DNA from: Candidatus Obscuribacteraceae bacterium
GTDB taxonomy: Bacteria > Cyanobacteriota > Vampirovibrionia > Obscuribacterales > Obscuribacteraceae
Assembly: GCA_044226015.1 (NCBI GenBank)
Contig: JBGAHS010000002.1
Location: 819,435 to 883,434, forward strand
Length of the DNA: 64,000 nt
Direction: 5' to 3'
Position numbers and translations under genes: made by a program. Positions 7,945 through 51,322 of this stretch are shown here, in pieces. How positions within the stretch are numbered: position 1 is the stretch's first letter; every line of letters starts with the position of its first letter. The notes below the pieces were generated by a model. The model was given only the letters and a program-made list of their open reading frames with translations, ran no database searches and had not been told where the DNA came from.

Positions 7945-8898
7945 TTAGTTCTGCCAAATCTGAGGTGCGTGATCGTCAACCTTTTGGTAGACACCAGATG
8001 CGGTGACACCTATACCGCCGAATCCTTCACCGACCTGATCAACATAAACGTACTTTCCATCAAATCGCATAATCAATCGATAACCAGAATCGCTGCCGTA
8101 CTCGCAATCATAAACAGCTGTGTTGTTTTTGATTGGAACAACACCAGAGGCTTCTCCTGTGTGGCTGCCGTTCAAAGCCTGGCAGCAGAAGTTAATCTTG
8201 TTGCCGGGCAAACTCACCACGCGAAAATCAGCACCTTCAAATTTTGGTTCGGTGTCTACACGTGAGTAGGAACCGGTCAGCTGCGAAAGATTCAAGTTTT
8301 TCTTTGCCGCGTGCACTGCGACCAGCTTACTCGAATCTTCTCTCTTTGGCCTTGCGAAGCAAATTTGTGGAAGCGCTACACTGCTCACCATTGCCTCTTT
8401 CCCATGCAATCTGCTTCTCACGTCATCGATGTATTCTTTGACTGGCTCTGGCAGTTTGCTCATCGAATCAACACCGTAAATGGACAATTTGTTTTCGGCA
8501 AGAACACAAACACAAACTTTCTTGGTATTCATGTTCAAATCAAAAAAGCTCTCTGAGATAGTGAACAGACCACGCACGCCACCTGCCGCATAAAGGTCAG
8601 CACCTTTCACATCAGGCAATTCTGTAATTTGTGTTGCATCAAAATACTTGTCGAGGTCGGCTCCCATTGTGCTTTTCATCAAAGACTTAACGTCTTCGTC
8701 TTCAAGCACGGTCCACAAGCTCTCCGATTTCTTCAATCGAATCAAACTTGTTTCTTGCGCAAGCACTTGATTCAAACTTGCACTGCTTTGTTTTTCGAAA
8801 TTTTTTCCAGCGGCGTTCGGCGAGAACGACAGCGCCTGAACTGTGACTGCTAGTGCCACCAAACCCGCTGCTGAAAATGCTTTTTTCAAGCTCAACAT
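7945..8898 (-). CDS. Secreted hypothetical protein
   Basis: Signal peptide MLSLKKAFSAAGLVALAVTVQA; AGAAGGGA RBS; beta-rich C-terminus. Confidence 0.7.
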   Translation of the reverse strand: MLSLKKAFSAAGLVALAVTVQALSFSPNAAGKNFEKQSSASLNQVLAQETSLIRLKKSESLWTVLEDEDVKSLMKSTMGADLDKYFDATQITELPDVKGADLYAAGGVRGLFTISESFFDLNMNTKKVCVCVLAENKLSIYGVDSMSKLPEPVKEYIDDVRSRLHGKEAMVSSVALPQICFARPKREDSSKLVAVHAAKKNLNLSQLTGSYSRVDTEPKFEGADFRVVSLPGNKINFCCQALNGSHTGEASGVVPIKNNTAVYDCEYGSDSGYRLIMRFDGKYVYVDQVGEGFGGIGVTASGVYQKVDDHAPQIWQN

Positions 8899-9038
8899 TG
8901 TCGTACTCCCTTCTAGTTGCATTTGAGTTTCCTCAATTGCAATCCTCTCATAAGGAGCACTCGCTGAAAAGCCCTATTGACGGGGTTTTACGGAGTTATC
9001 ACTTCTGCTTAGCTTTGCTTTTGCACAGCCTTTACAAA

Positions 9039-11304: not shown

Positions 11305-11641
11305 ACAAACCTTTTCCCAATACCATACATAAATATCATAGCTGGAAGCAGAGCCAATCACCACTTCAGGCTTGGAACACTATTGCATAGAATTCCAATT
11401 GGACCATTAAGCAATGTGAGTGAAACATTAACTGGGCCGCATCTTGCTTGAAACCTGATAGTTCTTGCCACACAAAAGCTTCGGGACACGCCGCCTCTTC
11501 CTGAGAAAGACTTATATACGTAATTCCCCCAATGCACTTGGGCCACAATGATTTAGGGACTTGATTTTATCTAGAAATCTGTCCACACCCACCAGTTTTT
11601 GCGTAGATACGCATGGGTGAGAGAGATGGGTGTTGGGTATC

Positions 11642-13948
11642 ATGGCACTGGATCAAGTCAAAGATTCTAAAAAGCCTGAAGAGTCAGCAAGTGAAGCTGC
11701 GGCAAAACTCTTCAAAGATGCAATCGGCAATCTGGGTGAAAAATCTCCAGTTGAAAACAAGACCGACGCAGCCAAACCGGCAGCGCAAAACGCAAAGCAA
11801 GATGCTACTGCGAACGAAAGCTCTATGTTCGACAGCCTTTCAAGCGCGTTTCACAAGACGGCTGACTGGATAACTTCCTCAACGGTTCTGCACTATATCA
11901 ACCCGATCGCCGCGAGCATCGGCGCTGGTATCAGTCTTGGTGGCGAGCTTGTTAAGGTTGCAGAAAACCTTTACCAGTCCGAAGACAAAAAGCTTACAGT
12001 GTCGAAGATCAATAGCCAGGAAGCTACAAAGCTAAAAAATGACTGGGACAAGATGTTCGACAGCGACAAGCCAAGCGTCGCCGCAGGCTCTGCAAAAGGC
12101 AGCATCGAATTCAACGACATTTTCGAAAGCTTGAAAAAGCCAGCCGAAATCAAAGTAGATCGCGTAAGTGATGAAGTAGCTTCCGTTCCTACAAATCAGG
12201 ATGCTACACGCTGGCTCTTCGGTGCAAATGAGAGACTCACCAGTGCTGACTACCTGCATAACTTCAGCAACGAAAAGAAAGAAAAGACAGAAATCAGCAC
12301 AGAAGCTGGACACGTTCATGTTGAAAAATCAGACGCAAATGGCAATGTCAGAACAATTGTAGATAAGACAGACAACAAAACAGTTGTTTTGCGTGACAAT
12401 GAATCGGTCGTCATTGAAAACGGCAAAGAAGTCATCAAAGGTGACGGATACAAAGTTACCTGGGATGAGCAAAACAAGCGCCACGTCACCCTCGACAACG
12501 GCAATGAATTGGTCAGAGATGGCAACAACGTCAAAATGAATCTCGCACAAGACAAGCTCGAGATAACCCCACATGTTTTGAAAAATCAAACAGCAGGCTT
12601 TTCATTTGTTGATACCAAAGACAACCTCGCGGCAAAAACCGAAGAGATCCGCAAAACCCTCGGCGAAGGACAAACCTACTTGCTCGCAATCAAAGGCGTT
12701 GGCACCAGAACAATTTTTCAGGACGGCACAACCTTTGATGTTCAACAACAGAAAGCAAGATTGGAAACAGCCAACCATCAAGTTTTCCATTTCGAAATCA
12801 AAGAAGGACAACTCTACGTTCGCAAGGACGGCGAGCTGCTTCCTATAACCAGCGAAAAATCACCAATCAAAGCAGTAGACGGCAAATTCAAAATCGGTGA
12901 CCTCGTTATTGACCAGCGCGAGTTATGCATCAAAACTGATGGTGACAAGCCAGGACAACACAGAACTCCAGATAGCTGCAAAACAGAAACAAGCTGCAAA
13001 CCAGAACCAGAGCTTGCATGCACAATCGCTAAGCCTGGTGATGCAAACAAAGAAACAGCTCCTGCAGCGGACTCTTGTGCTCCAAAAATATCACCATTCA
13101 ATGTAAACCTACAAACCGGCGAATTCAGCTGGGTCGGAAAAGATGGCAGAGTCTGGCACGGTAACATCAACCCAGATGGCAGCACACAAATAAACGACGG
13201 AAACAAAAAATATGAAAACAACGCTACTGATAGCAAAGTCAAAGTCACAGTTGAACAACCTGCAGCCGTTCCGGCTGCAACTGATGCCAAAGTTCAACCT
13301 GCTCAGCCAGCCAAGCCAGAAGTGACCACAATTGACCTGGCTACTACAACAATCGACACACCAAAGTTAGTGGACACCGTCAAAGATACAACAATCAAAG
13401 ATACTAACACTGTAATTCATAATGACCGTGTAGTTGAATTCAAAGATGGTCCAACCGTAAATCCTGATGGCTCAGTTCGTGTTGACCGCGACACATTCAT
13501 TGCAAAAGACATGCATGTTTACTCCCGTGACTGGGAGTCTAGTGCAGCAGTAAGCAGCGAGCGCAATGCCAATAGCATTTTCGGTTCGAGCAAAGCACCG
13601 CTTACTGAAGCCCAAGCACAAACAGCAGCAATCAACATTGCACAGAAAGCATCAAGCATTCAAAATCTTGCAAAATCAGGTGTTGTTAGATGGACAGAAG
13701 TTGCTTCATTAAACGCAGCTCTGGGCGACGTGCTTTCAATGATGTCCTCTGTGCCAGCAGGAAGCGCAGCACACGCAATGTTAATGCAAAGCTACAGCCT
13801 GATCATCAACGCAATTAACGTGGCTACGCCAAAGGCTCAAGCCGCAGAATCAGCCAATCAGATGGGTAGCGAAAACAAACAGGTCATTAAAGCAATCGAA
13901 AACGGCGCAAGCACAAGCGATTTGAAAAACCTGCATCGCGCTGCATAA
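11642..13948 (+). CDS. Large hypothetical protein (beta-rich middle, helical C-terminus)
   Basis: 768-aa uninterrupted ORF; no known motif recognised. Confidence 0.75.
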   Translation: MALDQVKDSKKPEESASEAAAKLFKDAIGNLGEKSPVENKTDAAKPAAQNAKQDATANESSMFDSLSSAFHKTADWITSSTVLHYINPIAASIGAGISLGGELVKVAENLYQSEDKKLTVSKINSQEATKLKNDWDKMFDSDKPSVAAGSAKGSIEFNDIFESLKKPAEIKVDRVSDEVASVPTNQDATRWLFGANERLTSADYLHNFSNEKKEKTEISTEAGHVHVEKSDANGNVRTIVDKTDNKTVVLRDNESVVIENGKEVIKGDGYKVTWDEQNKRHVTLDNGNELVRDGNNVKMNLAQDKLEITPHVLKNQTAGFSFVDTKDNLAAKTEEIRKTLGEGQTYLLAIKGVGTRTIFQDGTTFDVQQQKARLETANHQVFHFEIKEGQLYVRKDGELLPITSEKSPIKAVDGKFKIGDLVIDQRELCIKTDGDKPGQHRTPDSCKTETSCKPEPELACTIAKPGDANKETAPAADSCAPKISPFNVNLQTGEFSWVGKDGRVWHGNINPDGSTQINDGNKKYENNATDSKVKVTVEQPAAVPAATDAKVQPAQPAKPEVTTIDLATTTIDTPKLVDTVKDTTIKDTNTVIHNDRVVEFKDGPTVNPDGSVRVDRDTFIAKDMHVYSRDWESSAAVSSERNANSIFGSSKAPLTEAQAQTAAINIAQKASSIQNLAKSGVVRWTEVASLNAALGDVLSMMSSVPAGSAAHAMLMQSYSLIINAINVATPKAQAAESANQMGSENKQVIKAIENGASTSDLKNLHRAA

Positions 13949-30307: not shown

Positions 30308-30400
30308 AAATTCTGATCCAACAACGAACTAAAGTTAGCATAAATCGAGCCAAAATTCAGCGGCATACGTTATCTTAATAGCCCTAATGCGAGGTGAGTG

Positions 30401-31042
30401 ATGGCTTCAATCGAGGAAATAAAATTCGATTGCTCAAAAATGGAGCAATCCCGTGATGAACAGTACGAAAAATACTGGCTAGATTACAACACAAAAACGG
30501 AGATTACCCTCCATTTCTTCGACAAAGAGCCAGACATCCCCTGCAAACTATCTGATATTGAGTCACTTAGAAACTCCTTTAGAGACGGCATAACGCAGTG
30601 CGGTGGCGGTCTAATTAGTTTGGACCCGATTCAACTTGATAGCGTCGATGGAATTGAATGCATCTTCAAAGTGCCTCAACAGCCCCATGGAATGACATAT
30701 ATTTGCGCGCTGACACTGCCTTTCTCTCGTTTCAGTTATGTTATAAAAGTGCTTGCCGCAGAGCTGGGCACCACAGGACTACGCGACAACATCGTGATCG
30801 GGGCGCTGCTTCAGGAAGGCAAGATTCAAATAGAAACAGACGGTCAAATACGTGGATGGGCGAGAGATCCCTACATGGAGCAGTGGCAGGCAGCCTGCCT
30901 GAGAAATGAATCTGACGACGAGAAATACGATGAGCAATTCCCAGACCACCCACTTTCAAGATTGCGCAAAATCATTGCGCACATAAAAAATACAATCAGC
31001 TTTCAAGCCAATGTGAAATCTGAACCCCGCTTTGCAAAATAG
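30401..31042 (+). CDS. Hypothetical protein
   Basis: GAGGTG RBS; 213 aa; GGGLIS, GTTGLRD and YDEQFPDHPLSRLR motifs; function unknown. Confidence 0.7.
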   Translation: MASIEEIKFDCSKMEQSRDEQYEKYWLDYNTKTEITLHFFDKEPDIPCKLSDIESLRNSFRDGITQCGGGLISLDPIQLDSVDGIECIFKVPQQPHGMTYICALTLPFSRFSYVIKVLAAELGTTGLRDNIVIGALLQEGKIQIETDGQIRGWARDPYMEQWQAACLRNESDDEKYDEQFPDHPLSRLRKIIAHIKNTISFQANVKSEPRFAK

Positions 31043-31105: not shown

Positions 31106-34100
31106 TTAACCAGAGCTGCGCGAAGAATCGGGCAATTCATCTTCCAGCAAAAGGGGGAGTTGAATCAAGAAAGCACGACTGTTTTCCCTAAGCTCAAATT
31201 CGATGCTTCCCCTCAACAATCCAAAGATTGTTTTGCAAAGTGCGAGAGTCAGTGAAGAACCTCGAAGATCACCTTCTGAAGAACCAGTAGCAAGAAATTG
31301 AAACTTGTCGAATAGGTGGGAAGCACTCGTCTGATCAAGCTGCGAACCAGCAAAGGGAACACGAATCGTGAGCAGCGAAGCGTTTTCTGAAATCACAATA
31401 GGTTCAGCCGTTTTGCCAGCAACCTGTTGACAAAAAAGCACTAAGCGGCCAAAGGCTTTTGTGCATAGGGCCGGGTCTGCGCTGACCGCCGGAGCAGCCT
31501 TTGTTTTGTTGAGTACTACAAATTCCACTTCGGGATTTGTTTCTTTCGCCGATGCTAAAGCAGTCTCCAATGCATGAGCAGGGTCTATATCTTGCAGTTC
31601 TAGCGGAAACTTTCCGGCTTCCAATCTTTCAAGATCAAGAAGGTCGTTCACAAGCAAAATTACCTGTAAGACATTATCGTAAGCACGTTCAACAGTACTG
31701 GCATTTTCGACACTAAGCCTGCCGTAAACACCTTGTTGCAGCATTGTTAGAAATCCAAAAACACTGGTTAGTGGTGTGCGCAGCTCGTGCGACACCACAG
31801 CTAACATGTGCTGTTTGAACTCTTGATTTTCCTCCAGTCGTTGCACCATACTTTTGAAATTCGCGTGGAACGACTGCAACTCATCGTGCCCGTGCAAGAG
31901 AGGCAAAAGCGGCTTACCATCCGTAAACCGAACCGTATCATCAATTAAAATCTTGACTCTCTTACTTATGCTGGTACTAAAAAACGCTCCTAACAAAACA
32001 CTCAGGGCAACACTTAGAACGACTGCCTCTGCAATTAACATCTGAATATCGTCACGAGATCTCTTTCTCAAAGCAGGGCTCTTATCTTCAATTTCCTTCT
32101 GCTTTTCCAGTACCTTTCCTATCGATTGCGCTACAGCATCTAAACTTGATTCGATAGATGCTACTCGCCTCTTAAAACTGGCAAGCTCTGCAACCGACAT
32201 GTTTCCGCCATTATTGAGCATCAATTTACCCGTATGTAATGCAACAAGCTCGGTTTTATGAAACATGCTGCTAACTCTAGATAAAGCACGACGATCATTA
32301 CGATTAAGGTCAAACATTTCAGAGCACTGATACAACATGGCAGCAACAGTTACAGAGTAAGAATAGAAGTCCTTTTCATCTCCTTCACGCAAAAAGACGC
32401 CCCCAGATGTGGTGCCGAGAGTCACACACTCCCTGAACAAACTATTCGCCGTTTCAGTAACTCGCATGGCGTGCAAAACACGATTAGTCTGTGTTTCAGC
32501 TCGCAAGAGCATAGTGCTCAACACGAAAACAAATAGAATCTGAAACAACAGAGGCACCGCAACAACAATAAGCCCTTTATGCCAAATCTTCAAATGCAAG
32601 ATACTCTCCAACTCAGGCTCTGCCGAACCGAGTACTGGTCCGATAGAACCCTCTTGCGGCAGCCTTGACGAGCCGCTGTCATCCAAAACAGAAATCTCAT
32701 TTCTCGAGACTGGCAGCGCAAACCAGAACTCACTTCCCTGACCGACTTCGCTGTCAACGCCAATATGCCCTCCGTGAGACTTGATGATAATCGCACAAAT
32801 ATTCAGCCCCAGACCAGCGCCACCATGAGCAGTGGCATCCTTCCGCTCAGTTTGTTCGTATCGTTCGAAGATCTTCGTTCTCAATTCAGAGGGGATGCCT
32901 GGACCCTCATCTTTCACGCGAAACTCGACCCTGTCGTCGAGTTTCTTGCAATTTATAAACAATCTGCTATTTGCCGGCGAGAATTTGATCGCGTTGGAGA
33001 GGAAATTGACGAGAACCTGCGTCAAGCGCCCCTTATCGCCAGCAAACTCAAAGGCTGTTTCGGTGTAGTCGATGGCTATTTTTTTCTTCTCGAGTAAAGA
33101 CTTTACTGCATCAATCGAGTTCTTTACGAGTTCGTCCGTATTCAGCTGCTGTACATTTAATTCAATAAAGCCCTTATCGACATTTTCGAGCTGCAACAAA
33201 TCATCGAGAAGAACAATCAATCGCTCAATATTTTTTGCGGCAGTTTTCAGCCATTCATTTCCATTCTTATTAAGCTCAGCTGTAGCCGCGGTCTGCAATT
33301 CTTTAACTGATTCAACTGTTTGAACCAATGGCTGCTGCAAGCGATCCTTCAACATCGAGGCTAACTGTTGCCGCTGCCGATCAGCAGCCTTCAGCTGTTC
33401 TGACAAGCGATGAATTACCAGATCTAACTGCTCAAGTTCATCACCCCCGCCCAAGAGCGGCAATGGCTCTAAACCTCGAGACACAAGCCTGGTGTTTTCT
33501 GCAAGCTTACTTAACTTGGATGAGATACTCCTGGTAAAGTTCAAAGCTAATACGACGGTGATAGCCAGGTTCGACAAAACACCTGCAAGCAATATCCATT
33601 TTAGATTTTCAGCCAGAAAAGAAGGGCGCCCTTCTGGATGAATAAACTCATCACTGCCAGCCACAGCCGAGAAAGTCCTTACGCTGTTGTTGATCTCTCT
33701 CAAATTCGCATCAACATCAATAAACAGACTCGTATTCGACATGTTGGACATCAAAACGCCGACGTCCTGCCCAGAGAACTGCTTGAACATCTGATACATT
33801 TTTCGAGACGAACGCTTCATCTCCTTATAGGTCAGACGCAAAACTGGGTCGTTCCCCACAAGCTGATCCAACTGCTCAAAGGTGCCCGTGATTGATTGCT
33901 CGCCATTGCTCAAACGCGTCTGGCGATCTGACTGAAAAACTATTGTGTAAAGCCCCATCGAGACTATTTGGCGCAACAGAATGGTGCTTTTTTCTACAAT
34001 TTCCTGACTGCGAAGCTGCCTGTCTGTCTGCGCCTCAGCCTGATTCAGCGCATTTACCAGAGTGTACACGAATGCAATCTCAAAAATGAGAGGCACCGTA

Positions 34101-34138
34101 ACCAGTATAATCCCTTTCCCAGCGATGCTTAGCTTCAC
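31106..34138 (-). CDS. Tandem (double-module) membrane sensor histidine kinase
   Basis: Two TM-periplasmic-TM-HAMP-HisKA-HATPase modules. Module 1 has NFLSNAIKF, DEGPGIP and GAGLGL but its H-box reads MLKDRLQQPL. Module 2 has VVSHELRTPL but no N/G1/G2 boxes. Confidence 0.9.
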   Translation of the reverse strand: MKLSIAGKGIILVTVPLIFEIAFVYTLVNALNQAEAQTDRQLRSQEIVEKSTILLRQIVSMGLYTIVFQSDRQTRLSNGEQSITGTFEQLDQLVGNDPVLRLTYKEMKRSSRKMYQMFKQFSGQDVGVLMSNMSNTSLFIDVDANLREINNSVRTFSAVAGSDEFIHPEGRPSFLAENLKWILLAGVLSNLAITVVLALNFTRSISSKLSKLAENTRLVSRGLEPLPLLGGGDELEQLDLVIHRLSEQLKAADRQRQQLASMLKDRLQQPLVQTVESVKELQTAATAELNKNGNEWLKTAAKNIERLIVLLDDLLQLENVDKGFIELNVQQLNTDELVKNSIDAVKSLLEKKKIAIDYTETAFEFAGDKGRLTQVLVNFLSNAIKFSPANSRLFINCKKLDDRVEFRVKDEGPGIPSELRTKIFERYEQTERKDATAHGGAGLGLNICAIIIKSHGGHIGVDSEVGQGSEFWFALPVSRNEISVLDDSGSSRLPQEGSIGPVLGSAEPELESILHLKIWHKGLIVVAVPLLFQILFVFVLSTMLLRAETQTNRVLHAMRVTETANSLFRECVTLGTTSGGVFLREGDEKDFYSYSVTVAAMLYQCSEMFDLNRNDRRALSRVSSMFHKTELVALHTGKLMLNNGGNMSVAELASFKRRVASIESSLDAVAQSIGKVLEKQKEIEDKSPALRKRSRDDIQMLIAEAVVLSVALSVLLGAFFSTSISKRVKILIDDTVRFTDGKPLLPLLHGHDELQSFHANFKSMVQRLEENQEFKQHMLAVVSHELRTPLTSVFGFLTMLQQGVYGRLSVENASTVERAYDNVLQVILLVNDLLDLERLEAGKFPLELQDIDPAHALETALASAKETNPEVEFVVLNKTKAAPAVSADPALCTKAFGRLVLFCQQVAGKTAEPIVISENASLLTIRVPFAGSQLDQTSASHLFDKFQFLATGSSEGDLRGSSLTLALCKTIFGLLRGSIEFELRENSRAFLIQLPLLLEDELPDSSRSSG

Positions 34139-34347: not shown

Positions 34348-36483
34348 ATGAGTCAAGAGCCAAACATCAAAATTGACGAGAACCCTGGTACTGACTCGTT
34401 GGGCAGACAAGCGGTCATTAGCGCCAAGAGCCATGAAAGCACTCAAAAGACTGTCCTGGACGAGCTAGACGCCACACCCAGTAGCGCGCACTCAGGACAA
34501 AAAAATGCGCGTAATCCTGAACTTGAACTTGTGGGTAAGGTTCTCGCGAATAAATACGAAATCTTAGAACTGGTAGGCAAGGGCGGAATGAGCGTTGTCT
34601 ATAAGGCAAAGCATACCGGCATGGGCAAAATCTTCGCGGTCAAACTTCTTCATTTACACCTGGCTGATGATGAGATATCGCAAAAACGATTTAAGCAAGA
34701 AGCGCAGGCATCTTCCAACCTGAATCACCCGGGTATCGTTTCGGTACACGATTATGGCGAAGACTTTCACAACATGCCTTACTTGGTAATGGACTACATC
34801 GAAGGCCCATCACTGTCCGAAATATTGAAAGAATCTGGGAACCTGTCGCTCGAACGATTTTTGTCCATAATGCAACAAGTCACCTCAGCCCTCGCTCATG
34901 CCCACGCCAGCGGCATTGTGCATCGAGACCTGAAACCAAGCAATATCATGATTACCCGAGCCGAGGGAAAAGAGCAAGCAAAAATAGTCGATTTCGGAAT
35001 TGCAAAAGTACTGAGCCAATCAAATGAAGGTGCCCAGCAGCTAACACAAACAGGGGAAATTTTTGGCAGCCCACTCTACATGAGTCCAGAGCAATGTAGC
35101 GGCTCCATCATTGATCAACGCACGGATATTTACGCTCTCGGCTGCGTCATGTATGAGGCATTAAGCGGTAAGCTTCCGCATAAAGGCAACACCGTGATTG
35201 AGACAATGCATAAGCACGTCAACGAGCAGCCACCGCCGCTGGTTGCACCACAAATTCCAGATGCAGACAGACAGAAAATTGAATTAATGCTGCTAAAGTG
35301 TCTGGCAAAACTTCCGGAAGATCGTTTTCAAAACACAGTCGAAATTGAGTCGGAATTGCACCAGCTAAAGATGCGTTCAGGCACTGGCGTTCTCTCCAAG
35401 CTTGCTGGAGCATGGGACCTCGCTTCTGCAAAAAGACGGGCAGGAAAGAAAACAAAATTACCAATCGTATTGGGTGCCTTAGCAGCTTGTATGCTTTCTG
35501 TATTTATTTTGCTCTTTGGACTATATCAAGCGGATCAGAAATTACATGAGCTTGCCCGAATTCGCAAAATAGTTGACAGCATCGGAGCGACCGAGTCGGC
35601 GTTCTTAAACCTTGGCGAGGCAGTTAGAGAATACTTTGCTGCGATGATGTTTCATCCCGAGAGAGTTAACGCTGCACGAAAGTTCTACATTCGGCATTCG
35701 AAGCATGTGATAGAGAAAATCACGATTGTAGACAAACTCTTGAAGAAAGAAAAACTAATCACAAAAAACGATCGCTTACTCTGGAGAAAACAGTTAGAGC
35801 GCGTTCCAAGAGCAGTTGAACCGCTTAACACATTTAGCGATAGCGTCGCATCAGGTGACGAGTCTCAGTTCAGCCCTAATGCAGTCAACCTATTCAATGA
35901 GCTCTCACTGGTGAGCAGACAAAGTGCTGCAGTTATGCAAGAAATGACGCTTCGCGCTCACCAGCTTGAGAACAGAGCGCTGGAAGAATTTGCAAGAACC
36001 GAGCAAACCGTTGTTCTTTACTCATTTATCTGCATCGTCATCAATGGCACAGTTATGCTCGCCTTGAGCCTCAACTTCGTTAGAGGCAACCCTGACTTGA
36101 AGAAACTTGCAGACCAGGCAAGCAAACTCTCACGACGAAAATCGGCGGGTGCTGAAGGCGATATTGATGACGTAGAAGAATTGAATAATGTTCTGCAAGA
36201 ACTGGCGAATGCTTTGTCCGAGGCAGAGGAACGCGAGAAAGCGCTTCTTTCAAAAATAAAAGAACAAGACAAGCCTCTAGACCAGACTGGCTCTCTAAGC
36301 TCAAAACATACTGCGCAAAAGCTACAAGCTTTCGCCGAGAAAAGCAAAGCTGCGATGGAAGCAGGCAAATCAAATGCTACCGATGAATCACAGGCGACAA
36401 CTGAGACGGTAGCGGTTCTTCAGCTCGACAACGATGACGGAACCTTACCAGTACTCATGCCTCCTATCGACAAGAACAACTAA
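34348..36483 (+). CDS. Hanks-type Ser/Thr kinase fused to TM-helical sensor-TM-HAMP-like/coiled coil
   Basis: VGKGGMSVVY, FAVKLL, HRDLKPSN, DFG, YMSPEQ; TM1 LPIVLGALAACMLSVFILLFGL, TM2 VVLYSFICIVINGTVMLALSL. Confidence 0.9.
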   Translation: MSQEPNIKIDENPGTDSLGRQAVISAKSHESTQKTVLDELDATPSSAHSGQKNARNPELELVGKVLANKYEILELVGKGGMSVVYKAKHTGMGKIFAVKLLHLHLADDEISQKRFKQEAQASSNLNHPGIVSVHDYGEDFHNMPYLVMDYIEGPSLSEILKESGNLSLERFLSIMQQVTSALAHAHASGIVHRDLKPSNIMITRAEGKEQAKIVDFGIAKVLSQSNEGAQQLTQTGEIFGSPLYMSPEQCSGSIIDQRTDIYALGCVMYEALSGKLPHKGNTVIETMHKHVNEQPPPLVAPQIPDADRQKIELMLLKCLAKLPEDRFQNTVEIESELHQLKMRSGTGVLSKLAGAWDLASAKRRAGKKTKLPIVLGALAACMLSVFILLFGLYQADQKLHELARIRKIVDSIGATESAFLNLGEAVREYFAAMMFHPERVNAARKFYIRHSKHVIEKITIVDKLLKKEKLITKNDRLLWRKQLERVPRAVEPLNTFSDSVASGDESQFSPNAVNLFNELSLVSRQSAAVMQEMTLRAHQLENRALEEFARTEQTVVLYSFICIVINGTVMLALSLNFVRGNPDLKKLADQASKLSRRKSAGAEGDIDDVEELNNVLQELANALSEAEEREKALLSKIKEQDKPLDQTGSLSSKHTAQKLQAFAEKSKAAMEAGKSNATDESQATTETVAVLQLDNDDGTLPVLMPPIDKNN

Positions 36484-44070: not shown

Positions 44071-45234
44071 TCAAGAGAATGTGGATTGTGAGGTTTGGTT
44101 CTCAGGAGGAGCGTAGGCTTCTGCCATTCCAGCTGCTCGCCCCGTCGGGGCCACTGGAGAACGCTGCTGAAGAAGGCGTTGCAACTCGGTCTGCCGCGCT
44201 TCCAGTTGAGCACAATACGTCTGCCAGACCTCTGCCTGCGAGCGCAGAACCCTTGCGTTGTGCGTTAGCTCAGGAAGAAGGCTTTCAACTTCACCTATTA
44301 AGGATGAGGCTTTGTGCAACGGTGGGCGGACAGAAATCTCGTCTTCGGCTCCTGGCGGAGGCGTCGGGTCATTCGGGTCAGCGATGAAAATGTCTTCTTT
44401 GATTTTGACAAGTGTTTCGCGTATGCGTAGCGCGCGCTGGTAGGCAAGCTCAGCTTCTTGTTCAAGCCATTCTTTGCGTTTTCGCTGAGAAGCAATGTCG
44501 GCATTGAGATGGTCGAGGGCTCTGCGCCTTAGTACCAGTTCAGACTCTTTGGAGTTGAGTTCTTTCTCACGCAACTCAAGAACTCGCTGACGCCAGAGAA
44601 TCATAACAATGAATGAACTTGCAAACCCTACCATCACAAGGGTCAGAAGAATGTAGCCTCTCTTCGACCCTCGCATTTCGGTCCAATTGCTGGCAACAGC
44701 TGAAAGCAAGTCTTCATGAAAAGCAGGGGGCACACCTCGAACGTAATATAGTCGCCCAATGGCGCGACCAGGAGGCTTGCTCAACTTAATAACATCGTCG
44801 ATGCGCGGTCCATTGTGCGAAAACTGTGACGCCAGCGGCGGAGGGTCGGTCAACAGGTCGTAAGGCTCTTTCAGCGATTGAAGATATTCAATGTTCAAAA
44901 GCGGCTGCCAGGACTCTTTCTGGTAAAAATTGCTCGTGCGAAAAAAGATTTCCTGCCCAGACGGGTCAGTCACGACCAGCCCAAATATGCCAAAGTTCGA
45001 ATTCAATACTTTTTGAACTTCATCTACCTTTCCAGCGAGAATCAGCTGCGAAAGGCAGGAAGGCAGAGTGTGATGAAGAATGTTGAAATCGACCGTCTGC
45101 ACTCGATGAATCGTGCCGTTCCAATAGCTTTCATAATGTGAACGACAGAAACCAAGCCACAGCAACAGCGAAACAATAATCACTGATGGGATCAGGAAGC
45201 GCTTTTGAATTGAAAGTACAAGCCGGTTCAACAT
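44071..45234 (-). CDS. Membrane protein: TM-extracytoplasmic domain-TM-coiled coil
   Basis: Two hydrophobic helices flanking YWNGTIHRVQTVDFNILHHTLP...GRLYYVRG; long heptad region after TM2. Confidence 0.75.
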   Translation of the reverse strand: MLNRLVLSIQKRFLIPSVIIVSLLLWLGFCRSHYESYWNGTIHRVQTVDFNILHHTLPSCLSQLILAGKVDEVQKVLNSNFGIFGLVVTDPSGQEIFFRTSNFYQKESWQPLLNIEYLQSLKEPYDLLTDPPPLASQFSHNGPRIDDVIKLSKPPGRAIGRLYYVRGVPPAFHEDLLSAVASNWTEMRGSKRGYILLTLVMVGFASSFIVMILWRQRVLELREKELNSKESELVLRRRALDHLNADIASQRKRKEWLEQEAELAYQRALRIRETLVKIKEDIFIADPNDPTPPPGAEDEISVRPPLHKASSLIGEVESLLPELTHNARVLRSQAEVWQTYCAQLEARQTELQRLLQQRSPVAPTGRAAGMAEAYAPPENQTSQSTFS

Positions 45235-46166: not shown

Positions 46167-48158
46167 TCAAATCCACCCCAGAAGGTACTCGGTTTCGACC
46201 GATTTCCCTTTCCACATCAACACGTCACCAGAGCCGTTAAGCTCACTAATTACCTGATCAGTTATCGAAACAATGTTATCCCCTTCATGATGTTCATGCA
46301 AAAGCTTTTTCAATCTAAGCATCGTATCCAGACAGTCTTTCTTGTTACCCTCTAGGTAGCACCACTTCGCCAAACGCAACATTGCTTGTTCTTGCAAGAT
46401 TCTCCGCCCCCGCGATTTGCCAAGATCACACATTACACTATCGACAGCTTCATGGATGAATTTCTCAGCTTCTTTGGCACGTCCAGCTTCTTTGAGCACC
46501 TGGGCTTTCATCACATACATAGGCGAAACACCGCTTGGGTAAGCACCTTCATTCGACCCGAGCGGAATAAGGAGATCGAGATATTTCAAACTCCTTTCAA
46601 AGTCTTTCATTCGATATGCATTAACAGCGCAATAGGTGTAAAGATCGACCCGCCTGTTCAGCGTGTCGAGAACTCTATCAAGAGGAGCAGGAATTTGCAG
46701 GTACAGAAAACTGGAAGCCTCATCCTCAGACAATTGTCGATTTCTCAATATCCTATCAAGCAAGACCTTTTGCCCTTCAAGATCATTTCGCTTTAGCGCC
46801 AAAATCATTTCAGCTGTGTCACAGTAAACAGACTCAAAATAAGGTTTCACAGATTGAGTCGGAATGAGTTGCCTAGCCCGAATGATGGAAGCTTTCATGT
46901 CGTCTAAATCAGGACCCAAGATATCGATGACTCTCGCTCTCAAAATCCAGGCTGCAAATTTTAACCCTCTGTTCTTTTCGGTCAGCGGTCCAGATTCAAT
47001 TTCTTGAAATACGAGCTGTTCTCTGGTCTTAAATTTCTGCAGCAGCTTCGCTTCGGGCTGAGCAGGCAAGTCCTTAAAATCCTTCATTAGCTGAAGTAAC
47101 TGCGCCTCCAGAGATACAAATTTCACCCCTGAACCTTGCTGTATTCCCAACTTTACTTCAGCAGACTTTCTCGTATGCGCAAAATAGAAACAGATTGCAA
47201 GCGAGCTGACAAAACAGAAAGCAAGCACAGGAAAAATCGGAAAGCGTCGCGCGACTACAGCTGGCTGGTGAGCAGCAAAAGCCTCGCGTAGAAGCTTGAG
47301 AAATTCTTCTCCACTTCGCAAGCGCCGTTCGGGATTGCGAGCAAGAGCCCTATCAAACAAACGACGCACCGCCGGCGATACCTTGTTCAACAAAGGAGAA
47401 AGGTGTGCTACAGAATGATGAACCTTGTTATACTGCGTTGACAACTCCGAATCGCCCAGAAATGGCGGCTCACCGAAAACACATTCAAAAATAACACAGG
47501 CACATGAATAAAAATCTGAAGCCGGACCTGGCACCTCACCACGACATTGCTCTGGACTCATATAGGCAGGGCTGCCAGACAGCAACGTAGTTCTGGTCAG
47601 CCCAGCTGCCGAGCTTTCATCTTTTTCTTCAATTTCTCTTGCTATGCCGAAATCCAGAAGTTTAGCCACATAGACACCTGCATCTTCCGAAATCATGATG
47701 TTGCTTGGCTTAATGTCACGATGAATTATTCTGTTTTCGTGAGCATACTGAAGGGCATTAATGATTTGCTGAAAAATCAGATAAATAAGCTCAGGAGCCA
47801 GACGCCCATCTCGCTTTAGAATTGTCTGCAGAGATTCTCCTTCCAGATATTCACAAACCAGAAACGGAGCTGAATTTGCATTTACCCCAACTTGAAACAA
47901 GCGCACTATGTTTGGATGCTCTAGTTTTTTTGCCAGAGTTTGAGCCTCGCGTTTCATACGCTCAGCCTGCTTTTTCATCTCCTCGGAATCTTCGTTTTTG
48001 AGAATCTTCAATGCAACTATGCGGTCAAGATTTGCAGAGCGAGCCTTATACACCACCCCATGAGCGCCCTCACCCAGTGGCGCTATTACGGAAAACCCAA
48101 GCGGCATATTGGGCACTTCCACGAAGCTTTGCGGTTTAATTTTCCCAGGCTCTTCCAT
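46167..48158 (-). CDS. Hanks-type Ser/Thr kinase with TM helix and helical/TPR-like C-terminus
   Basis: LGEGAHGVVY, VALKIL, HRDIKPSN, DFG, YMSPEQ; TM FPIFPVLAFCFVSSLAICFYF. Confidence 0.92.
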   Translation of the reverse strand: MEEPGKIKPQSFVEVPNMPLGFSVIAPLGEGAHGVVYKARSANLDRIVALKILKNEDSEEMKKQAERMKREAQTLAKKLEHPNIVRLFQVGVNANSAPFLVCEYLEGESLQTILKRDGRLAPELIYLIFQQIINALQYAHENRIIHRDIKPSNIMISEDAGVYVAKLLDFGIAREIEEKDESSAAGLTRTTLLSGSPAYMSPEQCRGEVPGPASDFYSCACVIFECVFGEPPFLGDSELSTQYNKVHHSVAHLSPLLNKVSPAVRRLFDRALARNPERRLRSGEEFLKLLREAFAAHQPAVVARRFPIFPVLAFCFVSSLAICFYFAHTRKSAEVKLGIQQGSGVKFVSLEAQLLQLMKDFKDLPAQPEAKLLQKFKTREQLVFQEIESGPLTEKNRGLKFAAWILRARVIDILGPDLDDMKASIIRARQLIPTQSVKPYFESVYCDTAEMILALKRNDLEGQKVLLDRILRNRQLSEDEASSFLYLQIPAPLDRVLDTLNRRVDLYTYCAVNAYRMKDFERSLKYLDLLIPLGSNEGAYPSGVSPMYVMKAQVLKEAGRAKEAEKFIHEAVDSVMCDLGKSRGRRILQEQAMLRLAKWCYLEGNKKDCLDTMLRLKKLLHEHHEGDNIVSITDQVISELNGSGDVLMWKGKSVETEYLLGWI

Positions 48159-48166
48159 TCTTCATC

Positions 48167-49597
48167 TCAACGAAACATCTGCATCAAAACGAATGTCAGA
48201 GTCAAAACCAAAACCAACACTGTGAAAACTTGGGAAGCTTGTTTATAAGCTCCTACAGCCTCGCTTTTGGTTCTTGCGCGGTAATACGTTCCTTTAATTG
48301 ACTCTACAGAACCATCCAGCGATGCAATTCCGGTCGGCACTTCTTCTTCGAGACTGACAAGCTCATGACCGCTTGCAGCAGAAGCAGCTTGCGATGGTGC
48401 CATAAATAGCTGCGCTAAAGCGGAGTTCGACGCTGACTTCTTAGTAGGCGCCTTCTCACTTGCTACTGGTTCTGTGCCTTTTCGCTGCGCGACATTCACC
48501 CCACCTTTGACCTTACTTCTAGGCCGCTTGGGGTTATGATGGAACGGACCCTGATCAACTAATTCACCGGAAGCCGCAATCAACTCACTTGAACCTGGGT
48601 CTGGCGAAGCATCAAAAACAACTATCTGCCTGGACGATTCTTCCTGATCAACAGGAAGCAACTCTGCAAAATCATCGGGCACTAATAAGTCTGTTCCGAA
48701 GCCGGGCAAATCAGATAGACTGCAGCCCGCAAGATAGCGCAGCTTTCTTGCGGCATCTTTTACAGCAGCTAACTCATGCGCCTCTAGCAAGAAGAACATA
48801 CGTGATGACGCAGGATTTGTGAGGTCAGACTTGCGAAATAACAAAGCATCGTTACCGCAAGAAAAATCGTCCCACAATTCAGGAGCATGTTTCAAAATCT
48901 CAACGCTCAAGTATATGAGCCATGCTGAAAAATTATCCAAGCGCTCATCAAAATCACTTTGCGAGCGCCCCGGATGCTGATAGGCTCCATGCCCTAGCTC
49001 GTTACTTTGCAATCCACGCAATTCAGGAACAAACATCGCATCATAATCAACAATCTTAATTGCGTCGCCATCTATCAAAATATTTCCATGCTGCAAGTCA
49101 CCATGAGCGATACCACACGCCTGCATCGAAGTCACAATTCTTGCGAACTCATTCTGAAATTTCTGCAGCCTCGCTGGATTGCTCTTTGCCTCAGCCAGCC
49201 AGCGCTCGAGAGTTTCCCCTGCACACCATTGCATTTTTAGCAATGGCATCCATTTGCCATGAACGAGTATTCCTTTTGCCTGCAATTCGAAATCAACAGC
49301 AAACGGAAACTTTGCCTTTTCCAAAGCGCCGCAAATTGCCGTATAGCGGTCAATCAAATCTGGAGTTTGACGCAGGAAGCACCGAGCAGCCCATGACTTA
49401 CCACTCTTACGAATCTGGTAGACACTTGCAAACATTCCGCTATAAGGACGCGGCAAACCCAGCGCATCGAGCTCAGGATTAGCCGTCGCCAGCTCAGCAT
49501 CACGAAAGCTGTGCAAGGGATTTTGCACAGCCTCATTGTAATCTTGAGGACTGGGCCACGAAGACGGAATTTTTCCCGACGGAATCTGTTCGTCCAA
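48167..49597 (-). CDS. Atypical protein kinase of the TerY-P triad (YegI-like) with C-terminal membrane anchor
   Basis: WPSPQDYNEAVQNP, SGMFASVY, WAARCF, HGDLQHGNIL, VDYDAMFVP, ELGH..YQHP; C-terminal VFTVLVLVLTLTFVLM. Confidence 0.75.
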   Translation of the reverse strand: MDEQIPSGKIPSSWPSPQDYNEAVQNPLHSFRDAELATANPELDALGLPRPYSGMFASVYQIRKSGKSWAARCFLRQTPDLIDRYTAICGALEKAKFPFAVDFELQAKGILVHGKWMPLLKMQWCAGETLERWLAEAKSNPARLQKFQNEFARIVTSMQACGIAHGDLQHGNILIDGDAIKIVDYDAMFVPELRGLQSNELGHGAYQHPGRSQSDFDERLDNFSAWLIYLSVEILKHAPELWDDFSCGNDALLFRKSDLTNPASSRMFFLLEAHELAAVKDAARKLRYLAGCSLSDLPGFGTDLLVPDDFAELLPVDQEESSRQIVVFDASPDPGSSELIAASGELVDQGPFHHNPKRPRSKVKGGVNVAQRKGTEPVASEKAPTKKSASNSALAQLFMAPSQAASAASGHELVSLEEEVPTGIASLDGSVESIKGTYYRARTKSEAVGAYKQASQVFTVLVLVLTLTFVLMQMFR

Positions 49598-49734
49598 GCT
49601 TCGGCGTGCCCCTGCGTAATATCTGGTGTTACATATTACAACTTACCCAAAGTTTTCTTCGTTCATCCAGATCCACTTGACTCGAATAATCGGGGATAAT
49701 CAATGAATTAAGAACTTATCTGGGGAAGACAAGT

Positions 49735-50574
49735 ATGCCCTATACCGCTGAAATAAGCAGAGCCAACCCGTCTTGCATCGTAATTCTTATAGACCAGTCT
49801 GGCTCGATGGAAGATCCATTCGGCCAGGGCGCCGGCAAGCGCAAGGCAGACGGTGTCGCCGACGCGGTCAACCGGCTGCTGCAAAACCTGGTAATTAAGT
49901 GTGCAAAGTCTGAAGGCATTAGAGACTACTACCATGTAGGAGTTCTGGGCTACGGTGACAGAGGCGTTGGTACGGTGTTTACCGGTATTCTTTCAGGAAA
50001 AGAACTGGTTCCTATCAGCGATATTGCAAACAACCCAGCCCGAGTCGAACAACGTACCAAAAAGGTAGATGACGGCGCCGGCGGTATTCTTGAACAGAAA
50101 ATCAAATTTCCGGTCTGGATCGACCCCTTATACAAGGGCGGAACCCCAATGTGCGAAGCCTTGCGCCAGGCGAAGCGCATTGTGAGTAATTGGCTTCACC
50201 AGCACAACGGCTGTTTTCCACCTATTGTTGTGAACATTACAGACGGCGAAGCGACCGACGGCGACGCTGAAGACCCGGCTGAACAGATAAGAAGAATGTC
50301 CAGCGAAGACGGAAATGTCCTCCTGTTCAATCTGCACATTTCCTCATCCAATCACGCTCCAATCGAATTCCCAGACTCGGAATCGTTGCTGCCAGACGAT
50401 TATGCAAAACTGCTTTTCAGAATGTCGAGCCAGCTGCCCGATTACATGTGGTCGCTGGTGCAGGAAGAAGGAATAATTATTTCCGACAACCCACGCGGCT
50501 TTGTGTTTAACGCTGACCTGGTATCAGTAATTCGCTTCCTCACAATCGGTACACGCCCCAGCAATCTCAGATGA
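49735..50574 (+). CDS. vWA domain protein (TerY/YegL-like)
   Basis: MPYTAEISRANP, MIDAS IDQSGSM, GGTPMCEAL, NITDGE. Confidence 0.85.
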   Translation: MPYTAEISRANPSCIVILIDQSGSMEDPFGQGAGKRKADGVADAVNRLLQNLVIKCAKSEGIRDYYHVGVLGYGDRGVGTVFTGILSGKELVPISDIANNPARVEQRTKKVDDGAGGILEQKIKFPVWIDPLYKGGTPMCEALRQAKRIVSNWLHQHNGCFPPIVVNITDGEATDGDAEDPAEQIRRMSSEDGNVLLFNLHISSSNHAPIEFPDSESLLPDDYAKLLFRMSSQLPDYMWSLVQEEGIIISDNPRGFVFNADLVSVIRFLTIGTRPSNLR

Positions 50575-50581
50575 GGAAACA

Positions 50582-51322
50582 ATGAGAGTAAGCTATCGGG
50601 TGTTCTGGCTTCAGAAAGCGGGCATCAGCGCTGATGAATACGAAGATGCATACGCTCCGGAATCAGCCCCAGACCAGGAATTAAATGAGTTTCGCTGTGC
50701 CGTCGCAGATGGTGCTACGGAAACATCATTTTCTGGACTCTGGGCAAAAATGCTTTGCGATGCTTATACAGAAAAAAAATTCGACCTTATTGAGCTGCAA
50801 GCGGAGTGGCTCAAATCAGTCTCCAGCAAAGAACTTCCCTGGTACGCCGAACAGAAACTGGAATCAGGTGCGTTCGCCACAATACTTGGTCTAGACATTC
50901 GTGAAGAAAACAAAGAATTACACTGGTCAGCACGCGCACTCGGCGACAGTTGTTTGTTTCACATAAGAGGAACAGAAATTCTGAAAGCACTGCCACTAGA
51001 GAAATGGCAAGATTTTGATTACACCCCTATGCTGATTTCTTCACAGCAGAAAGCCAACAAAGGCGTACTGGAAAAACAAGAGCATGAAGTCGGACAATGC
51101 AAGCAAGGTGACGTTTTTTATCTAATGACCGACGCAATTTCAAAATGGTTTTTACGAAGACAGACAGAGCAGCAAGATGCCGTGAGAACCCTCGAAGCCA
51201 TTCGGGACAACGAGCAGTTTCAGAAAATTGTTGATACTGAACGACAGGCTAAAGATGCGGAAGGGCGAGCTCTGATGCCAAATGACGATGTAACGTGGAC
51301 TCGCATTGCATTGCTTGCTTGA
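50582..51322 (+). CDS. PP2C-like protein phosphatase (YegK-like, TerY-P triad)
   Basis: EYEDA, AVADGATETSFS, ALGDSCLF, LMTDAI, NDDVT; 7 nt after the vWA gene. Confidence 0.85.
   Translation: MRVSYRVFWLQKAGISADEYEDAYAPESAPDQELNEFRCAVADGATETSFSGLWAKMLCDAYTEKKFDLIELQAEWLKSVSSKELPWYAEQKLESGAFATILGLDIREENKELHWSARALGDSCLFHIRGTEILKALPLEKWQDFDYTPMLISSQQKANKGVLEKQEHEVGQCKQGDVFYLMTDAISKWFLRRQTEQQDAVRTLEAIRDNEQFQKIVDTERQAKDAEGRALMPNDDVTWTRIALLA

Follow-up and report, generated by a model that had tools for sequence, protein, structure and literature searches.

Complementary lesions in a tandem sensor kinase of Obscuribacteraceae: a probable single-chain pseudo-heterodimer

Introduction

Sensor histidine kinases are taught as homodimers, and whether asymmetry within them is functional is debated. 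In the Mycobacterium tuberculosis HK1/HK2–TcrA system, kinase function is divided over two units. Here, we describe a gene for a tandem sensor kinase with reciprocally inactivated halves, located at 31106..34138 on the reverse strand of a 64,000-nucleotide stretch from a Candidatus Obscuribacteraceae bacterium (assembly GCA_044226015.1, contig JBGAHS010000002.1, positions 819,435 to 883,434). This whole stretch is referred to below as the window.

A 2025 study of FasBC from group A Streptococcus (PMC12675982) calls heterodimeric kinases rare. It describes FasB/FasC heterodimers in which the kinase domain of the His-bearing FasC is dispensable and FasB is proposed to phosphorylate His246 of FasC in trans; FasB keeps the histidines of its dimerization and histidine phosphotransfer (DHp) domain, and cis phosphorylation was not excluded. 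EnvZ mutants carrying either G2* or H243A complement each other in trans (PMC4734776), and the active kinase core is asymmetric, with one subunit active at a time (PMC11371814). For fungal and amoebal dual kinases, the accessible sections report no complementary lesions and call the function obscure (PMC6324907, PMC4965123). The HK1/HK2–TcrA system is named in PMC9321153.

Results

A duplicated sensor kinase with reciprocal lesions

The open reading frame (ORF) runs uninterrupted for 1,010 codons and encodes two full membrane sensor-kinase modules in tandem. In each, two transmembrane helices flank a helical periplasmic domain, followed by a HAMP-like linker, a hairpin-shaped DHp domain and then the ATP-binding catalytic (CA) domain. 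An earlier sequence-only reading had recognized the protein as a duplication of a complete sensor kinase, and alignment of module 1 with module 2 confirmed this (22% identity over 393 columns, E = 7e-25). All motifs quoted in that reading, as well as the Asp and His codons, were found in place. In module 1, Asp265 (GAT) replaces the phosphoacceptor His and the ATP pocket is intact; in module 2, His784 (CAC) is present and the ATP pocket is dead. The Pfam scan agrees, with HisKA matched in two stretches (best 775–842) and HATPase_c in one only (367–478; 107.6 bits versus a cutoff of 26.4). The features, all on the reverse strand and with residue numbers in brackets, are as follows.

31106..34138, reverse strand: whole gene, 1,010 amino acids in two modules; full-length fused orthologues exist
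33536..34117, reverse strand: module 1 sensor, with a transmembrane helix (about 8–30), an all-helical periplasmic domain (31–178) and a second transmembrane helix (179–201), from hydropathy and AlphaFold secondary structure
33380..33535, reverse strand: module 1 HAMP-like linker (202–253), from motif and a helix-loop-helix in the model; 65% mean identity
33185..33379, reverse strand: DHp1 (254–318), His-less, with the Asp265 codon at 33344–33346, from motifs and orthologue alignment
32705..33184, reverse strand: CA1 (319–478), ATP-binding domain intact, from Pfam, orthologue alignment and fold match
32594..32704, reverse strand: tether between the modules (479–515), predicted disordered (predicted local distance difference test (pLDDT) below 50 at 483–507) and unconserved (14% mean identity)
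31979..32593, reverse strand: module 2 sensor, with a transmembrane helix, a periplasmic four-helix-bundle domain (542–696) and a second transmembrane helix, from fold matches
31823..31978, reverse strand: module 2 HAMP-like linker (721–772), from orthologue alignment and the AlphaFold model
31625..31822, reverse strand: DHp2 (773–838) with a canonical H-box and the His784 codon at 31787–31789, from Pfam, motifs and orthologues
31154..31624, reverse strand: CA2 (839–995), degenerate ATP pocket with a fold predicted to persist, from motifs, orthologues and AlphaFold

Pfam HAMP gave no match in the module 1 linker, where the label follows motif and model. The fusion is not an assembly artefact, since a 44-kb contig from an independent study (run X2) covers the whole ORF stretch without a gap and its differences are mostly synonymous: 15 substitutions change 13 codons, 9 of them synonymously, and leave all motifs untouched. 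A promoter scan yielded no site on the strand of the gene and counts at chance level. One exact 243-base RNA contig from a single metatranscriptome is too little to show expression.

The pattern is conserved in orthologues

We aligned the protein with 14 full-length relatives of 36–79% identity, one of them labelled Ca. Obscuribacterales by its source. The reciprocal pattern held in all 15 sequences: the H-box His occurs only on module 2 and an intact CA domain only on module 1, never both on the same module. Invariant residues comprise N378, N382, D410, G412, G414, G440, G442 and G444 in CA1 and His784, Glu785 and Thr788 in DHp2. The His position of module 1, by comparison, is occupied by eight different residues (D, E, V, G, K, N, S and L); the acid at H+1 and the Thr at H+4 are gone as well, while the Leu, Pro and Asp residues of the bundle core are invariant. 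A relocated phosphoacceptor in module 1 was considered and rejected: DHp1 contains neither His nor Tyr, and His243 belongs to the HAMP-like part, where a His is also common in the consensus of the family.

The degenerate ATP pocket ascribed to module 2 by the sequence-only reading held up, with a refinement. The N, G1 and G2 boxes of CA2 are lost, with Arg or Lys at 898 and Phe, Tyr or His at 902 in place of the N-box Asn residues (at the catalytic Asn position, 12 sequences have Phe, two have Tyr and one has His), and an F-box-like motif is kept (K945 and F946 nearly invariant), as is the predicted fold. Mean identity amounts to 43% for DHp1, 57% for CA1, 62% for DHp2 and 34% for CA2; CA1 has 39 invariant columns and DHp2 20, versus none in the tether, and the frame is open in every orthologue. 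Judged by these alignments, the dead parts, DHp1 and CA2, are relaxed yet kept as structure.

Reciprocal tandems recur in both orders and as split genes

A profile search of 1.84 billion representatives listed 150 representatives of 50% clusters, whose kinase cores were checked by script for the presence of His and of the N-, G1- and G2-box residues; the query biases the resulting counts, and the listed rows are kin rather than independent cases. The survey bore out the reciprocal pattern expected of homologues: 73 of the 150 carry a His-less, ATP-competent module followed by a His-bearing module with a dead or deleted ATP domain (forward order) and 16 show the reverse order, alongside 28 intact tandems, 24 single-module proteins and nine others. 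Outright deletion of the CA domain from the His-bearing module accounts for 11 representatives (nine forward, two reverse). A true module lacking both His and ATP site was absent among the 150. Thr or Ser occupies H+4 in 84 of the 89 His-bearing modules of reciprocal proteins, and this residue is scattered in His-less ones. The nine others include P0135, reciprocal on inspection, two broken or truncated proteins (P0154 and P0174), an unrelated four-core protein (P0201) and a single His-less module miscalled as two (P0206); the remaining four are weighed in the Discussion. In P0148, P0165 and P0172, the adenine-binding Asp in the G1 box of module 1 is exchanged for Asn, and the N and G2 boxes are preserved. 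Two of these three have a dead ATP domain in the other module, so either the variant G1 box still works or the proteins are kinase-dead.

A census of tandems in the source genome (G000), which has no bias toward the lesion pattern, gave 16 two-module membrane tandems, 61 ordinary single kinases and one split pair (C8:205401-208467). Eleven tandems are forward, including 31106..34138; three of the eleven were read by eye, and one of the eleven has a partly degenerate CA2. Three are reverse with CA1 deleted, one is intact and one has CA1 deleted and both histidines kept. C7:335657 and C8:284157 were left out because in each the profile had divided a single core, and C6:370708 because it has no membrane helices. 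CA1 is deleted outright in C10:374995-377559, C8:228042-230612, C8:604429-606969 and C12:264098-266764; three of these have a His-less module 2, and the fourth has a His in an altered H-box. The excluded C6:370708-375222 encodes 1,504 amino acids with a repetitive N-terminal part, in which a His-bearing DHp domain is directly followed by a His-less DHp domain and an intact ATP domain, making it a candidate soluble monomeric kinase.

Of 30 loci examined in relatives, five (L010–L013 and L030) hold reciprocal pairs split over two genes, in both orders, and two hold intact two-gene pairs. Near-identical intact kinase genes lie side by side in L007 and L008, adjoining an ORF resembling a response regulator; such neighbouring genes may represent the state from which split or fused pairs began. 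In a survey of the class with five candidates scored per genome, strong matches were confined to the family of the window (12 of 30 genomes versus 0 of 120 from the other families). A search of genome contigs for related loci returned a single weak, unrelated match, and a metagenome scan recovered generic kinases only, with no such tandem among 106 kinase ORFs in 80 loci.

Losses in both directions arose within intact-tandem lineages

Phylogenies were unrooted with Shimodaira–Hasegawa-like approximate likelihood ratio test (SH-aLRT) support only, so that the number and order of events are approximate. In a quick tree of CA columns (LG+G4, long row L012 left out), His-less modules did not form one clade (39 versus 44 rows; p-AU 0.0011, approximately unbiased test). 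With DHp helix 2 added, the starred branches force at least four changes. A 132-row tree, in which PAS-bearing forward rows were thinned to one in four and six odd rows left out, placed forward and reverse decays nested in the same well-supported intact-tandem lineages: His is lost in module 1 of P0135 and P0137 and in module 2 of P0133, P0136, P0170 and P0190. The PAS clade, too, holds both directions of decay. The reciprocal design thus appears, from these sequences, to have evolved repeatedly within the Obscuribacterales lineage.

We envisage that an intact tandem, already a self-paired pseudo-heterodimer, would have had two composite sites, CA1 to the His of module 2 and CA2 to that of module 1, and that one of them would have been lost many times, in either direction. 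Because only one site of a kinase dimer is in use at any moment, either composite site could be given up, and loss of the second need not be adaptive; the losses may be neutral. The sequence-only reading had taken complementary losses as an argument for selection rather than decay, which was overstated: a His position that drifts freely and losses in both directions from intact tandems are what is expected for a redundant second site. Selection acts on the remaining site and on the folds.

Structure prediction and a possible pairing of the halves

An AlphaFold2 model of the full chain (77 alignment rows) reached a pLDDT of 87 and a predicted template modelling score (pTM) of 0.69, with disorder only in the tether and the tail and with CA2 folded. 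If the halves were mutually placed with an error of 30–15 Å, pTM would have a ceiling of about 0.56–0.67; the observed value lies above this, so the model likely places the halves together.

We also predicted a complex of two copies of module 1 (203–480) with two copies of module 2 (722–845). It scored 0.42 versus 0.00 for the best of three controls, with contacts agreeing at 79% or more and partner pLDDT of at least 70, a weak pass. The mark was reached by 116 of 157 solved versus 2 of 215 mismatched pairs; at scores of 0.60 or below, it was reached by only 18 of the 157 solved pairs and by both mismatches, and the job is unlike the calibration set. The pass may reflect likeness to, or memory of, solved kinase dimers.

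The core containing CA1 matched the folds of CusS and HK853 cores (Z 22–24). For the module 2 sensor, fold matches included the HK9 sensor (3va9; Z 16.8, root-mean-square deviation 2.4 over 126 residues) and PcaY (6s18; Z 16.7), with CHASE3/4HB_MCP_1 as Atlas leads. No chain covering both halves was among the matches listed, and these searches are silent on intrachain pairing.

Genomic surroundings

As the sequence-only reading had noted for response regulators, the 64-kb window contains no receiver domain; the nearest match in the genome is about 54 kb away. The genome is rich in signalling genes, with 133 receiver-domain matches and 106 ORFs carrying a Ser/Thr kinase catalytic-loop motif. 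The window itself holds four clear Ser/Thr kinases and one kinase-like ORF. The divergent neighbour (34348–36483, forward strand) encodes a Ser/Thr kinase followed by two membrane helices (at about 371 and 555), and the part between these weakly matches sensor modules of the tandem family in a search within the genome (E = 3.5e-5 to 3e-4). Locus L002 shares the arrangement of Ser/Thr kinase, tandem kinase, 214-amino-acid ORF and 200-amino-acid ORF, which is absent from L003, L004 and L014. At 46167–51322, a Ser/Thr kinase, a kinase-like ORF, a vWA protein and a PP2C-like phosphatase form a cluster that, we assume, resembles the TerY-phosphorylation triad. Pfam and NCBIfam gave no match for four ORFs: 11630–13948 (forward, 772 amino acids), 30398–31042 (forward, 214 amino acids), 44071–45234 (reverse, 387 amino acids) and 7945–8922 (reverse, 325 amino acids).

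Discussion

Proposed mechanism

The protein is probably a trans-complementing heterodimeric kinase folded as a single-chain pseudo-heterodimer with one working site; that it uses this heterodimeric trans chemistry at all, pairing between chains included, is somewhat more probable. At the level of sequence, both modules and both lesions are established, as is the finding that the lesions are conserved and recur in either order and in split genes; pairing of the halves within one chain is predicted only. In trans, His784 of module 2 would receive its phosphoryl group from the intact CA1 of module 1. The halves would pair over their full length, through sensor bundles, transmembrane helices, HAMP-like linkers and a DHp four-helix bundle, with the tether of 30–40 residues looping back to the membrane. 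The phosphoryl group would then pass from His784 to a response regulator encoded elsewhere, and Thr788 would give the same single site phosphatase activity. H+4 is a phosphatase position with a Thr/Ser motif given in PMC3591291; as this residue is kept together with the His, the kinase, transfer and phosphatase functions would share one face. The two unlike periplasmic domains would form one asymmetric sensing surface.

The direction of phosphorylation is suggested by the pattern of losses. In a trans kinase, a composite site consists of one CA domain and the His of the other module, so that its loss leaves one lesion per module, as observed. In a cis kinase, loss would strike one module twice, a pattern that is absent among the true modules of the 150 representatives, which argues for the trans mode. 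Transfer from CA1 to His784, as put forward in the sequence-only reading, is therefore in keeping with a conserved and recurrent one-way pattern, and the pairing of the halves that it presupposed stands as a prediction.

Several observations weigh against this proposal. Among the solved structures nearest in sequence and fold are those of HK853 and WalK/VicK, and HK853 and WalK phosphorylate in cis (PMC4734776, PMC11371814), so the trans mode is suggested by the loss pattern and not by the nearest solved kin. Some domains scored as dead are partly degenerate (C11:129735, C8:205401 and L030). P0148 and P0180 carry one lesion only, and P0165 and P0172 keep both histidines with no fully canonical CA domain, unless a domain with Asn for Asp in the G1 box works. 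Placement of the halves in the AlphaFold2 model was judged by scores. Duplication accounts for the equal module geometry, unmixed between halves in 102 of 102 representatives, and exact register does not exceed that of shuffled pairs. The HAMP-to-His distance is identical between halves in 110 of 146 proteins and is fixed family-wide; without PAS, 58 of 58 also match after shuffling, and with PAS, 21 match exactly versus 19.2 when shuffled (449 of 5,000 shuffles as high), so register was not counted as evidence of pairing.

Alternative explanations

An addition to, rather than a replacement of, this chemistry would be that the pairing was selected as an AND gate, in which the two periplasmic domains have separate ligands and must both be occupied to switch on the site. 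Both sensors are full length, about equally conserved (mean identity 30% for module 1 and 35% for module 2 over the 15 orthologues) and strongly different from each other, and the source genome has expanded the design to 16 tandems. Four-helix-bundle sensors often bind ligand at the dimer interface, which would make one composite site. Neither a ligand nor a residue that binds one was identified, two unlike sensors are already present in intact tandems, so that the lesions are unneeded for two inputs, and in FasBC, the closest studied system, the membrane part of FasB is dispensable (PMC12675982). We consider such a gate unlikely, and the coincidence detector suggested by the sequence-only reading found no supporting evidence.

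The same chemistry might instead operate between chains, module 1 pairing with module 2 of another chain in a two-chain assembly or a longer array. Split two-gene versions must pair in this manner, the complex prediction passed weakly with separated halves, and tethers reach up to 100 residues in close orthologues. Set against this are the confidence of the single-chain model as one unit and the lengths of the shortest tethers (20 amino acids without and 30 with PAS; medians 33 and 49), which scale with module height and permit pairing within the chain. Pairing between chains as the actual arrangement seems to us improbable.

Slightly less credible still is that each half homodimerizes, module 2 serving as a phosphotransferase or phosphatase fed by receivers and module 1 as a regulating pseudokinase like DivL, which is among the top sequence and fold matches. 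Proteins with His and a dead ATP site, and His-less proteins with an intact one, are each known alone; ChpT and Spo0B are stand-alone examples of the former, soluble homodimers fed by a receiver domain, and CA2 retains its fold and F-box. However, the two lesions occur together, and do so repeatedly, in both orders and also in split genes; the only His-less membrane single of the family in the source genome adjoins a gene for a His-bearing partner, and DHp1 lacks the H+1 and H+4 residues and any Tyr. That the gene is a decaying duplicate without kinase function is very improbable, as the lack of an adjacent regulator and the presence of the orthologue group in only 3 of 30 relatives searched at high identity are outweighed by open frames in all orthologues, invariant columns in CA1 and DHp2 with none in the tether, mostly synonymous strain differences and several paralogous tandems within 1–2 kb of a receiver gene (distances from 67 of the 133 receiver matches, which may be overestimates).

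Implications

A natural single-chain kinase with hard-wired asymmetry would allow the sensor, membrane, HAMP and DHp parts of one half to be mutated independently of the other, unlike in homodimers, so that questions about asymmetric signalling become directly testable. For both directions, the family offers intact, half-decayed and fully reciprocal states, along with domain-deleted and split ones, a rare series in which the transition from homodimer to obligate heterodimer can be studied, and two-input biosensors might be built on it as a scaffold. In automatic annotation, such proteins are concealed under the label of ordinary kinases. A broader reading, which we put forward tentatively and hold to be doubtful, is that Obscuribacterales assembled a repertoire of single-chain, one-site receptor kinases by repeated duplication or fusion of sensor kinases and loss of one of the two composite sites, with unlike sensor halves acting as two-input gates. 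If so, the family would amount to a natural experiment: one catalytic face would suffice for a histidine kinase, and cis or trans mode could be read from genomes.

Comparison with known systems

Our literature search, covering the main text of mostly non-subscription papers, turned up no report of a reciprocal HisKA kinase occurring naturally in a single chain, nor any work on kinases of Obscuribacterales. As in FasB/FasC, two kinase-like units would pair and the kinase domain of the His donor is expendable, here degenerate. FasB/FasC, however, are encoded by two genes in an operon with a ComE-like regulator, as opposed to one ORF without an adjacent regulator, and the membrane part of FasB is dispensable (PMC12675982); the tandem kinase shows two periplasmic four-helix sensors, full reciprocal loss and many parallel origins. 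EnvZ G2* and H243A represent exactly the same two lesions, and the mixed dimer autophosphorylates in trans (PMC4734776); these are engineered mutants of one homodimer with identical sensors and no covalent link, whereas the gene described here is natural. In CheA3/CheA4 of Rhodobacter sphaeroides, ATP binding and phosphoacceptor likewise reside on separate cooperating units (PMC3591291), but these are two soluble class II, HPt-type proteins with domains deleted and without DHp-helix pairing; Pfam matches in our single protein are HisKA and HATPase_c only, with no CheA-type domains.

HK1 and HK2 of M. tuberculosis are two separate, non-duplicated proteins and not a tandem of full sensor modules. 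ChpT and Spo0B differ from the present protein, which is membrane-anchored and fused to an ATP-competent partner. Cores of CusS, HK853, WalK/VicK and DivL share the DHp–CA fold (Z 20–24); all are homodimers of single-module chains, each chain bearing both a His and an ATP site, except that DivL is without His. Fungal and amoebal dual kinases such as Tco2 likewise have two kinase cores per polypeptide, but are hybrids with receiver domains (PMC6324907, PMC4965123), of which there is none here. The principle of complementing kinase units is thus known; what is new, to our knowledge, is the single chain, the full reciprocity and the many parallel origins.

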